Below, one piece after another: positions 4,910 through 18,357 of a stretch of 35,013 bases of DNA; position 1 is the stretch's first letter; each line of letters begins with the position of its first letter. A program made the translations under genes and the position numbers. The notes beneath the pieces are model-generated. The model saw only the letters and a program-made list of their open reading frames with translations. It was not told the origin of the DNA and did no database searches. The stretch is from a virus (Duplodnaviria; Heunggongvirae; Uroviricota; Caudoviricetes): the IMG/VR virus record IMGVR_UViG_2579778606_000008. One strand, written 5' to 3'.

Positions 4910-5075
4910 AATGGCAGCCTCTTGGTTGAGTATTAATAACTCACCACCAAGGTTTTCCACGACCATAAGGGTGGTGAGGCGTACAGGGGTGGAAATACCG
5001 GTCAACCAAGAATCCGGCCAGCCTTGCAGCTGCCCTGCACGCCCCACCATAATCTGAATGTGGCTGTGCTTGACG

Positions 5076-5101
5076 CATAAAAAAACCGCCTGAGCGCGGT
5101 T
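5076..5101 (-). terminator. Putative intrinsic terminator (minus strand) between dicF and rha
   Basis: Minus-strand hairpin AACCGC-GCTCAG-GCGGTT followed by a T-run (plus-strand A-run at about 5077-5085). Confidence 0.4.
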
Positions 5102-5389
5102 ATGCGCTTGATTGAATTCCGGGTTTCCACGCCCGGCACCCGTTTTATGAGGTGCAGGTGCACTATAATTCCACCCGTTCTGGTTTTCAATAGCTACATT
5201 CAACATTTTCTCTTACCTTTCATCACCGAAGTGAACTTTGTTGATGCGGTGCCTGGTGCCTCCAGGTGACGTTAACCAGTTAACAATTAACGCCGGATAC
5301 AGAGAATCCACCCATAACACTGTTTTTGGTTTTAACTGTTCCGCGTGCGCTTAGCCGCATTCACCGCATCACAAAATTCACTTTAAAAA

Positions 5390-5442
5390 GGGTGGCAGAG
5401 CAGTCACGGAGTAGAACTGATGCCACCAAAGACTACACATGG
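5390..5442 (-). ncRNA. dicF: DicF-like small RNA (ftsZ-targeting sRNA of Qin-type prophages)
   Basis: Minus-strand sequence UUUGGUGGCAUCAGUUCUACUCCGUGACUGCUCUGCCACCC followed by a U-run closely matches DicF as I recall it, including the terminator hairpin; lies downstream of the ydfABC-like genes as in E. coli K-12; ends are approximate. Confidence 0.65.
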
Positions 5443-13689: not shown

Positions 13690-13902
13690 CAAAAACGGTT
13701 TGCGGGGAAATCTTAGTTAAGTAGAATAACTGCGGGTGCTTGAGGCTATCTGTCTCAGGCATGAACACCAAAAGGCAGATAGAGAAAAGCCCCAGTTAAC
13801 ATTACGCGTCCTGCAAGACGCTTAACATTAATCTGAGGCCATATCTATGCGACACATAGAGATTAGCCTCTTACGGACCGAAAGGTCAAGGAGAAGCAGG
13901 CT
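13690..13902. promoter_or_regulatory. hok leader region (expected site of the mok-like leader ORF and Sok antisense RNA)
   Basis: 20-codon leader ORF (13847..13906) whose stop overlaps the hok ATG; a Sok RNA was not delineated, so boundaries are not resolved. Confidence 0.35.
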
Positions 13903-14058
13903 ATGAAGCAGCAAAAGGCGATGTTAATCGCCCTGATCGTCATCTGTTTAACCGTCATAGTGACGGCACTGGTAACGAGGAAAGACCTCTGCGAGGTACG
14001 AATCCGAACCGGCCAGACGGAGGTCGCTGTCTTCACAGCTTACGAACCTGAGGAGTAA
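13903..14058 (+). CDS. hokD: Hok/Gef-family type I toxin (HokD/RelF-like), 51 aa
   Basis: Translation MKQQKAMLIALIVICLTVIVTALVTRKDLCEVRIRTGQTEVAVFTAYEPEE matches HokD/RelF as I recall it; below the ORF-track length cutoff; GGAG RBS. Confidence 0.9.
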   Translation: MKQQKAMLIALIVICLTVIVTALVTRKDLCEVRIRTGQTEVAVFTAYEPEE

Positions 14059-14872: not shown

Positions 14873-15931
14873 GTGCGGGTATTACTTCGACCTGTTCTGG
14901 TACCGGAACTTGGGCTGGTGGTGCTAAAACCGGGCCGTGAATCCATGCCGGTATTCCACAATACCCGGGTACTGGTGGAGCCGGAACCGAAAAGCATGCG
15001 TAATCTGTCGTCCGGGGTCGTTCCTGCCGTTCGCCAGCCGCTGGCGGAGGATAAATCATTACTGCCATTTTTCAGCGACGAACGAGTGATTCGTGCTGCT
15101 GGTGGCGCTGGCGCATTGTCTGACTGGTTACTGCGCCATGTTAAATCCTGCCAGTGGCCACACGGCGATTATCACCACAGTGAAACCGTCATTCACCGTT
15201 ATGGTACCGGCGCAATGGTGTTGTGCTGGCACTGCGACAACCAGCTGCGCGACCAGACCTCCGAATCACTCGGGCAACTTGCTCACCAAAACCTGTCTGC
15301 ATGGATGATTGACGTCATACGCCATGCAATGAATGGCTCGCAGGAACGGGAATTATCGCTGGCTGAATTATCCTGGTGGGCGGTCCGCAATCAGGTGGCG
15401 GACGCGCTACCGGAAGCGGTATTACGTCGTTCGCTGGGGTTGCGTGCGGAAAAAATCCGCTCAATGTACCGTGAAAGCGACATCGTACCGGGAGAGCAGA
15501 CCGCCACCAGCATACTGAAACAGCGCACAAAAAATCTTGCGCCGCTGCCTCACGCCCACCAGCAACAGAACCCACCACAGGAAAAGACGGTGGTCAGCAT
15601 TGCCGTTGATCCGGAATCTCCGGCTCAGTATCTCCAGCGCCAGAAACCACAACGGGAAGAGATGCCTGTATACACGCGCTGGGTAAAAACGCAGAAATGC
15701 ATGACGTGTGGCAATCAGGCAGATGATCCGCATCACATCATTGGTCATGGACTGGGAGGGATGGGAACAAAGGCTGACGATTTGTTTGTTATTCCGCTGT
15801 GTCGTAAATGCCATAACGAACTACACGCCGGGGTAAAAGATTTTGAAGAAAAACACGGTAGTCAGTTGTTGTTGCTGATTCGTTTTTTAATGCACGCGAG
15901 AAATTCGGGTGTTCTGAAGTGGAAAGCATAA
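14873..15931 (+). CDS. YdfU-like (DUF968) protein with Cys/His-rich HNH-like C-terminus
   Basis: 352 aa; GTG start with GGAGG RBS; CQWPHGDYHH and C.TCG...HHIIGHG...CRKCHNELH motifs; gene order matches Qin ydfU. Confidence 0.6.
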   Translation: MRVLLRPVLVPELGLVVLKPGRESMPVFHNTRVLVEPEPKSMRNLSSGVVPAVRQPLAEDKSLLPFFSDERVIRAAGGAGALSDWLLRHVKSCQWPHGDYHHSETVIHRYGTGAMVLCWHCDNQLRDQTSESLGQLAHQNLSAWMIDVIRHAMNGSQERELSLAELSWWAVRNQVADALPEAVLRRSLGLRAEKIRSMYRESDIVPGEQTATSILKQRTKNLAPLPHAHQQQNPPQEKTVVSIAVDPESPAQYLQRQKPQREEMPVYTRWVKTQKCMTCGNQADDPHHIIGHGLGGMGTKADDLFVIPLCRKCHNELHAGVKDFEEKHGSQLLLLIRFLMHARNSGVLKWKA

Positions 15932-15934
15932 ATG

Positions 15935-18300
15935 ACCGAACGCAGAAAACTTACCAAAACATAACCCCCCAAAATCAACAAAAACGAGCGACGACGCGCC
16001 AGCAAAAAGCACCGATCAAAAAACAAGGACCGATATAACCGCACAGCAGCGCATAGTGCACGCCAAAACACAACGAAATTAAGCCTGTCCGGACGGCTGG
16101 CAATAAAAATTATTGCAGAGCCACCGGATAAAAGGCCTCCTAAACTACACAATAGCACGAAAGAACCACACAATGAACAAACGCACGCAAGAAAGCCAAT
16201 GGACGATGAGCAGTTTGATGAAATCAATATTGTACGTGGCCAGCCACAAGCCGGCGGAAAGCAAGACACAAGAAGAACAGAGGTCAGGGACCAGAAATAA
16301 CAAGGAATTACACGAAGTGCGGAAACAACACAGAAGCGCCAAAGCAGAAATCAAGGAAGAAACAAAAAACCAACTAGAACACCAGCACCAAAATAACCGC
16401 GAAGACACAACACCGTACAGACGCAAAAAAAGTAAAGACAGCGATCAGGAAAAAAAAAAAATGATCACGCGGGATAATCCCCCGATCCAGGGTAAACAAT
16501 CACTGGCGAAAGGCTCATCAATTGCGCTACCCACCACGCTGGAACGACCAAAAGCACAGAAGCGGCGACCAGACCTGGAACTGGAAGAACATCAGAAGGC
16601 GTAGGCGGACGGCAGTGATAAACGAAAAACAAACTGCGAGCAGCAAAAAGCAAAAACGCAAGCGCAATGGAGTGAATTTAAAACTCAGTCCGGCTCCAGA
16701 AAAATTGCAGTGAAAACGCTGGAGCGTGTGAAGAAATAGAGATAAAAGGCGGCACAGGATGTCAGAGGAAGACCCAACGGGAAGAAAAACTACAAAACAC
16801 ACGAACGAGCCAGACTGTGTGGAGTTAAGCCTGATAACTGGAGCCATAATTATGCGAACTACTGGCGTGAGATGTGCGATATTTTTAAGCGCCTCGATAG
16901 AGAATCCTTGATGTGCAAAATGAAAATAAGAGCGCAACAAAAACCAAACACAACACGACGAGATATTGCAAAAGTCAATTAAATCGCACAGCCAAAGTAC
17001 AAAACAAACATTTAAACCAAATCAAACAGGAAGCAAAACAAACAAAAAAACACAGAAAAACGCTCCATGTGAGATCCGAAAAGCCCGGAAATAAAAGAAA
17101 CAAGATAGCGCATGAAAAGAAAACACTGGCAGCTGAACGGCCACGCAGACAAGAGATACGGCAAAATCACACGAACAAGAAAAGGGAAAAAGACATGCTA
17201 AAACAGAAGGATATGACAGAAGCCGCCAGAGGGACATCGAAACAACCAACCGATACCGACACAACAACAGTCACGCAGATGGCACAGAATACTTACACAA
17301 CACCCGAAAGCTGACAGGAAAAAAAAACCCAGCAAGACAGAGAACGTCGCGCACAATACAAACGTGCCTGAAAAAAACAACAGCAGTCCGAAAGGCTTGA
17401 AGATGGCTGGAAAACGAAAAGAAACAGGGCGTCATAGGTGCAACTTTCCCGTTGCTGAAAAAGAAAACGCCAGAACAGAAGACAGACAAAAGAGAGCACG
17501 AAAAAAGTTCAAATACCACACAATACACACGGATGACTGCTGTCAGGCTCGCCAAGAAAGTACGAAAAGAAACTGGCATGGTGAATCCCCCTGTGCGGAG
17601 GGGCAATCAGCGAGTAGGTATATGGGAAAATAAAAGAACCAGGTGAGGAAAATGAATTAACCGGGAGGCACCCGGCACCATGCAATGGCACATAGCGCCA
17701 AGCAAAAACCCCTCTCCGCAGGGGCCGGCGATACAGAATGAGAAAGATCGAACCAAACTCCAAAGGCAAAAGGTTACCTTAGCCAAAAAGAACAGAGCTA
17801 AAGAGCCCAAAGCAGAAAAAAGCATCAATACAAAACAAAATCCATAGCTCGACGGCATACCAGAACGAAGAAGACTAAAGCCCAAAAAGAGATACGGAAA
17901 GAGAAGACAATATAAAAGCTCACAAATAAAAAGTAAGGAGGGACAATAAAACAAACAAGAGCCAGCATAAATAGAAAAACAGGAAGCAAGAAAACAACCC
18001 AAACAAACCAGATGAAGAACAGGATTGCACCACATATGACTGAAAAAGATATTCCGCATGATGGCTGGATAAAACAAACAACCAAAATCCACGACACCCA
18101 CAAAAAGCACCAAAACCTCAAACCCGATCAGCCGAAAAGTATAAAGGACACAGAAAACCCCAAACCAGACAGCAGAATCAGGAAACCGATCAGCTTTAAG
18201 CCAGATATAAAAACACCGTGGGATATATCAAAACACCTAGCGGACCCACAAATACAAGCGTCAAAAAAAAAATCAAAAGGAAGGCACAATGGGGAACGAA
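15935..18300. other. About 2.4 kb compositionally extreme block: plus strand A/C-rich and strongly T-depleted, with no convincing gene
   Basis: By eye only a few T per 60 nt across most lines; the resulting overlapping ORFs in many frames encode K/Q/E/N/T-rich (plus) or F/L/C/S-rich (minus) low-complexity peptides; two short islands of normal composition (about 16810-16920 and 17580-17730). Confidence 0.8.
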
Positions 18301-18357
18301 AACAGCATTACATGTCAGGTATTTTAAAGAATCATTTTTCAGATGGTGGAAAGAACC

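Follow-up and report, generated by a model that had tools for sequence, protein, structure and literature searches.

Hairpins of a probable STnc100 small RNA gene within a Qin-like prophage block that appears to have been overwritten computationally

STnc100 RNAs and the copy at this locus

The STnc100 small RNAs (Rfam RF02076) constitute a catalogued family of gammaproteobacterial RNAs carried by prophages. Eleven copies are found in EDL933, most of which are transcribed, and one of them (STnc100_4) has been confirmed by Northern blot (PMC5331693). In O157:H7, an STnc100 prediction overlaps the Hfq-binding sRNA EcOnc27/sRNA103, which is located just downstream of stx2B and whose overexpression is reported to raise the fimZ and espA transcripts (PMC12711010). 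STnc_100 has also been detected in the outer-membrane vesicles of STEC (PMC12370729). A 2026 preprint connects STnc100 with the PasD sRNAs and with prophage contexts linked to Q: PasD1 and PasD2 of EPEC, which are prophage-encoded, Hfq-dependent and Q-linked, are reported to have structural homology to STnc100 and probably a common origin with it, although, according to the same preprint, the sequences are too divergent for BLAST and the seed regions differ (bioRxiv 10.64898/2026.05.13.724894).

The window, i.e. the whole stretch of 35,013 bases that was analysed, aligns gaplessly to E. coli DA33135 (NZ_CP029576.1), in which it corresponds to a Qin-like lambdoid prophage. Two C4/G4 hairpins, to which a sequence-only reading had drawn attention, are located inside a block that departs strongly from this native sequence. 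With a probability of about 90%, we read the locus as an STnc100 sRNA gene at 17547-17736 (+ strand) inside a block of the prophage that was overwritten computationally, not biologically. The features considered are the following.

15945..18306, no strand: altered ("biased") block, native prophage sequence carrying 764 substitutions without gaps, each of them downward in the order A<C<G<T
16809..16912, + strand: second island of the sequence-only reading, 104 nt of unaltered sequence within the native coding region of antiterminator Q (16293-16982)
17547..17730, + strand: Rfam RF02076 (STnc100 sRNA) match over the full model (positions 1-206), 82.5 bits, E 3e-18
17577..17583, + strand: 5' strand of the closing helix, CAUGGUG, intact, which closes the multi-branch core (Rfam structure line)
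17587..17603, + strand: hairpin 1, CCCCC-UGUGCG-GAGGGG region, untouched; it is the first stem-loop of the core and corresponds to the conserved 5' stem-loop of STnc100
17628..17659, + strand: altered patch over the middle helix, which destroys the native GGAUUCAG...CUGAAUUC helix
17661..17675, + strand: third hairpin, CCGGG-AGGCA-CCCGG, a conserved STnc100 stem-loop, untouched, -8.8 kcal/mol
17676..17682, + strand: 3' strand of the closing helix, CACCAUG, intact, paired with 17577-17583
17706..17737, + strand: native Rho-independent terminator, CAGCCCCUC-UCCG-GAGGGGCUG followed by UUUAUAUUGA

The copy in the window exceeds the RF02076 gathering score of 47 bits with the covariance model across its full length, and the native element, which extends to about 17736, scores 132.4 bits. 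With regard to the damage, 37 of the 190 positions of the element are altered in the window. The closing helix, the 5' CCCCC/GGGG stem-loop and the CCGGG/CCCGG stem-loop are all intact, whereas the middle helix (GGAUUCAG/CUGAAUUC), which is present in the native copy, is absent from the window copy; this loss is due to the corruption at 17628-17659 and not to the locus itself. Folding of the native RNA reproduces the Rfam structure at -74.6 kcal/mol. The published forward qPCR primer for STnc_100, CATGGTGAATCCCCCTGTGC (PMC12370729), is identical to positions 17577-17596 of the window.

The native terminator, with its 9-bp stem and T-rich tail (-20.3 kcal/mol, z -4.74), is detected by a consensus scan. 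In the window, only its core at 17709-17724, which is hairpin 2, survives: the stem is shortened to 5 bp, with one pair broken by the change of G17719 to C, the outer stem has disappeared and CCGGCGAUAC stands in place of the U-rich tail. A scan of the window sequence found no terminator on the + strand. Hairpin 1 is thus the 5' stem-loop, and hairpin 2 what is left of the terminator, of a member of a known, already catalogued sRNA family.

The element at 17547-17736 is most probably a copy of STnc100 in the usual slot of the family, downstream of the late-gene antiterminator Q. In the native RNA, the CAUGGUG/CACCAUG helix is predicted to close a multi-branch core comprising hairpin 1, the covarying middle helix and the CCGGG/CCCGG hairpin, with a strong intrinsic terminator, of which hairpin 2 is the core, following after a short linker. 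By analogy with the characterised copies, this RNA would be transcribed from the + strand, end at its own terminator, bind Hfq and base pair with mRNAs. The copy as written in the window would not be functional.

This locus has in common with STnc100 the same closing helix, the same CCCCC/GGGG and CCGGG/CCCGG stem-loops, the GCCCCUCUCCGGAGGGGC terminator in its native copy and the prophage late-region context downstream of Q. In contrast, the window copy is corrupted and lacks the middle helix, the outer terminator stem and the U-tail. The genomic neighbourhood is also different, as this locus adjoins an iraM-like gene and not stx2. The biological significance of the hairpins is small: they belong to a catalogued prophage sRNA family to which this copy adds no new knowledge.

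As for the hairpins themselves, the first (CCCCCTGTGCGGAGGGG) is located at 17587-17603, exactly where it had been placed, and the second (CCCCTCTCCGCAGGGG) does exist, at 17709-17724, one base to the left of its estimated position. Neither is statistically notable as a sequence pattern. The CCCC-N4-10-GGGG pattern occurs five times in the window versus 2.64 +/- 1.89 times in shuffled sequences, 17 of 100 of which show five or more occurrences. Both hairpins fold, at -8.8 kcal/mol for hairpin 1 (z -0.93) and -7.8 kcal/mol for hairpin 2 as written in the window (z +0.06), but neither does so better than shuffles of its own composition. Their significance derives from homology and not from the sequence pattern. 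In the minimum-energy fold of the window, hairpin 1 pairs with hairpin 2, whereas in the native RNA each folds separately; we rejected this long-range pairing as a real structure and regard it as a by-product of the corruption. The native hairpins have a 9-mer in common, CGGAGGGGC (17596-17604 and 17716-17724), the second copy of which reads CGCAGGGGC in the window; the match probably arose by chance between two C4/G4 stems.

We examined the conservation of the element in IMG/VR with a scan anchored on the central hairpin, which gave more than 120 loci and 40 distinct 200-nt variants, i.e. 41 aligned sequences with the native copy. The native variant is the commonest in this sample (28 of 111 extracted copies). 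The stem of hairpin 1 is unchanged in 40 of the 41 distinct variants, and GGTGAATCCCCCTGTGCGGAGGGGC is almost invariant, with one stem change and the loop forms TGAGCGG, TAAGCGG and TATGCGG. Hairpin 1 is thus conserved but, because its stem is invariant, it exhibits no covariation, and its pairing is supported by the Rfam model and folding energy, not by compensatory changes. Among the 41 variants, five pairs of the middle helix have changed in a compensatory manner. RNAalifold pairs columns 42-48 with columns 161-167, which correspond to the closing helix, with invariant pairs or G-U changes only. The CCGGG/CCCGG stem-loop is likewise invariant, or almost so, across the 41 variants. The terminator is the same in 36 of the 41 variants, the other five carrying a different one. 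Directly after the terminator stem, columns 219-245 of alignment A1 (IMG/VR loci L004-L123) exhibit at least four unrelated sequences, with the forms TGTTTATATTG, TTTCTTATGGAC, TTTTCTGTGCC and TTTTTTATGGGT. This varied downstream sequence and the swapped terminators place the 3' end of the sRNA at a recombination junction of the prophage mosaic.

Composition and substitutions of the altered block

The block at 15945-18306 had been described as biased in composition, and this anomaly is real: its bases are A.446, C.229, G.213 and T.111, versus approximately.25 each in the rest of the window. The AT skew ranges from +0.4 to +0.8 from about 15950 to 18300, and is roughly 0 elsewhere. Relative to the native sequence, A rises from 26% to 45% and T falls from 29% to 11%.

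Comparison with NZ_CP029576.1 revealed 764 differences inside the block and only six outside it, the latter being ordinary SNPs in both directions over 32.6 kb. The same picture was obtained with NZ_CP195459.1 as the reference. When positions 15900-18400 were searched by megablast in complete E. coli genomes, the matches were collinear, gapless and of equal length, but only 77-79% identical. The matched native segment is an ordinary lambdoid prophage, in which rusA, the antiterminator Q, small ORFs and an iraM-like gene are annotated; under the block itself lie rusA, Q, the pR'/tR' region, two small ORFs, STnc100 and the iraM-like gene. The block diverges from this sequence by 32% with zero indels, and no long ORF remains in it, rusA, Q and the iraM-like gene being destroyed together with the native tR'-like terminator. 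The exact altered sequence is absent from IMG/VR, from the contigs of GTDB species-representative genomes and from JGI metagenome contigs, and no place covering at least 80% of the query was found in 5,426 complete E. coli genomes or in phage records. The product of the ORF at 18012-18368, the one ORF from the block that was tested, is not on record, and a tRNA scan of the native region found none.

The substitutions follow a strict order. None of the 620 native A residues is changed, and the observed changes from native to window are C to A (103), G to A (153), G to C (91), T to A (178), T to C (116) and T to G (123). No upward change occurs, which makes the matrix strictly triangular with respect to the alphabet. 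In the altered patches, the frequency of the target base is independent of the source base: the probability of becoming A is.349 for native C,.350 for native G and.326 for native T, and that of becoming C is.210 for native G and.212 for native T. This matches a model in which the window base is min(native base, X), where the implied X has approximately A.34, C.21, G.225 and T.235, independently of the native base. When the partly known X was slid over the window and over the restored native window, as well as their reverse, complement and reverse complement, X was not found; the search gave only the trivial self-match, the best other matches being at about z 4-5.

We know of no mutational process that yields such an alphabetical one-way pattern, nor of any chemistry that orders the bases A<C<G<T, and on these grounds we read the block as a computational product. 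The alphabetical one-way substitution is a software or editing signature, not a biological one. At about 47% of the positions of the altered patches, the native base would have become the alphabetically smaller of itself and an unrelated base. Such overwriting would raise A to 45% and lower T to 11%, and would destroy rusA, Q, the iraM-like gene, the middle helix of the sRNA and the tail of its terminator.

Several models of the change were rejected. A change of G to C cannot arise from the clearing of bits in a 2-bit code, subtraction of a random decrement predicts a G to A frequency of about.54 versus the observed.35, and a one-way rate matrix with equal rates predicts a T to G frequency of about.15 versus.225. 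Natural divergence between prophage alleles requires two-way substitutions and indels, whereas all 764 changes are downward and there are no indels at 32% divergence. The responsible process could be a consensus tie-break or first-in-list choice, the resolution of ambiguity codes or deliberate in-silico editing. Artefacts of the consensus, tie-break or ambiguity-code type, which take the first base in the order A, C, G, T, give a smallest-base output that reproduces both the triangular matrix and the source-independent frequencies. Nevertheless, this resemblance is one of outcome only, and a plain tie-break leaves unaccounted for the preference of the untouched stretches for native sequence with A>T.

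In terms of quality control, the 2.36-kb stretch is not genuine sequence, and findings that rest on its composition, on its scarcity of hairpins and ORFs or on the contrast between islands and background are to be discounted. A test for one-way alphabetical substitution against a close reference offers a quick detector of the same corruption elsewhere.

Untouched stretches and alternative explanations

Two islands of normal composition had been proposed within the block. We found at least 18 untouched native stretches of at least 12 nt, with a total of 727 nt; further examples are located at 16075-16131, 16457-16528, 16668-16735, 17179-17231 and 18033-18072. The region at 17580-17730 is not a single island but three untouched native pieces separated by altered stretches (17565-17627, 17660-17700 and 17709-17725, the last with one changed base at 17719), and at a resolution of 100 nt its AT skew is still +0.45 to +0.51. 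The other proposed island (16810-16920) does correspond to an untouched stretch, 16809-16912, which is ordinary internal coding sequence of Q.

The placement of the islands is not random. The native AT skew is positive in 17 of the 18 islands (permutation p < 2e-4), and the T content is 18% in islands versus 33% in patches. However, local skew predicts island status only in part, with a best AUC of 0.79, and no simple composition threshold reproduces the islands; the largest of them, 16809-16912, has a native AT skew of -0.02. As the islands favour native stretches with A>T and skew explains their placement only partly, a random-patch model is incomplete. The islands are places where the overwriting did not occur, and they consist mostly of ordinary coding sequence.

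The block could instead be a genuine long unstructured transcript or region in which the islands are functional sites under selection, an explanation that we consider very unlikely. It would agree with the fact that the native hairpin 2 is a real terminator in a structured RNA region and that two larger islands fall inside the STnc100 RNA. However, the unstructured background is the coding sequence of rusA, Q and iraM overwritten alphabetically, with a triangular substitution matrix, and the damage extends to the sRNA, 37 of whose 190 positions are altered, those of the terminator tail among them. Most islands are, moreover, arbitrary internal pieces of those genes. The mean conservation depth among 120 related prophage loci is 38 in islands versus 42 in patches, for which reason we rejected the islands as conserved modules. 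The structure-poor background, on which the sequence-only reading had relied, thus provides no functional contrast. As it is overwritten sequence and not a natural transcript, standing out from it says nothing about function, and the island-like appearance of the hairpin region results from the overwriting of 15945-18306 around it. What survives from the proposed types of site (binding, processing, promoter or terminator elements) is that the native hairpin 2 is an intrinsic terminator within a structured RNA gene, of a family associated with Hfq (PMC12711010).

Slightly less probable still is that the hairpins belong to the remnant of a protein-coding gene, maybe with no role at the RNA level. 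In the RefSeq annotation of the native sequence, the minus strand carries a pseudogene at 17566-17691 labelled as a partial "hypothetical protein", but this reading comprises just 42 codons and has no annotation beyond that label. The + strand, in contrast, provides a structured-RNA match of 132 bits, compensatory pair changes and a strong terminator, and homologous copies have been detected as RNAs (PMC5331693). The pseudogene call is probably a spurious call over the RNA gene.

We regard as highly improbable that the block is real DNA produced by strand-specific hypermutation or T-purging, e.g. a DGR-like process on the minus strand, from which the islands were spared. Seen from the minus strand, all A residues are targets and are replaced by any of the other three bases, a superficial resemblance to the adenine mutagenesis of DGRs; the change also has sharp boundaries, beyond which the flanks are essentially those of the reference. 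In a DGR variable region, substitutions are confined to the adenines of the template repeat, with a template repeat and a reverse transcriptase nearby. Here the altered minus-strand bases include, besides A, both C (to T or G) and G (to T), 35-56% of which are changed in the patches, and this rules out adenine specificity. The target frequencies are independent of the source, as expected for min(a, b), and the allowed classes follow the alphabet. The window contains no template copy, i.e. no second copy compatible with the block, and no reverse transcriptase is annotated by RefSeq in the near-identical native prophage. In addition, three genes were destroyed without one indel. A DGR variable region was rejected because A, C and G of the minus strand all change and on account of this missing second copy. 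It is scarcely credible that the A-rich, T-poor block is physical DNA, engineered or from an undescribed strand-specific mutagenesis, with the islands, including the STnc100 core, as protected elements.

Other terminators and RNAs of the prophage

With regard to the minus strand, terminator-like sites were observed at 17660-17726 and 17795-17808 in the window only; they are absent from the native sequence and are spurious, since the enrichment of the + strand in A creates T-runs on the minus strand. Hairpin 2 was also considered as a bidirectional terminator serving the convergent iraM-like gene, and this was rejected: its minus-strand tail, CTGGAGAGTGGCGC, is not T-rich, and the native sites are on the + strand only. 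A further strong native terminator, AAAAAACCACCGCCAGGTGGTTTTTTTT, is located at 17045-17072 (4146-4173 in L001), shortly after Q and at the place of a pR'/tR' leader. Its Rfam similarity to STnc370 (35.9 bits) and isrK (19.4 bits) is weak and below threshold, and in the window this terminator is fully overwritten.

Four other RNAs match Rfam families above the gathering score in unaltered sequence of the window.

4967-5054, - strand: C4 antisense RNA
5079-5155, - strand: isrK-like RNA
5390-5441, - strand: DicF
13734-13905, + strand: sok antitoxin RNA, next to hokD

The sok, C4, isrK-like and DicF matches are all expected for a prophage of the Qin/dicB type.
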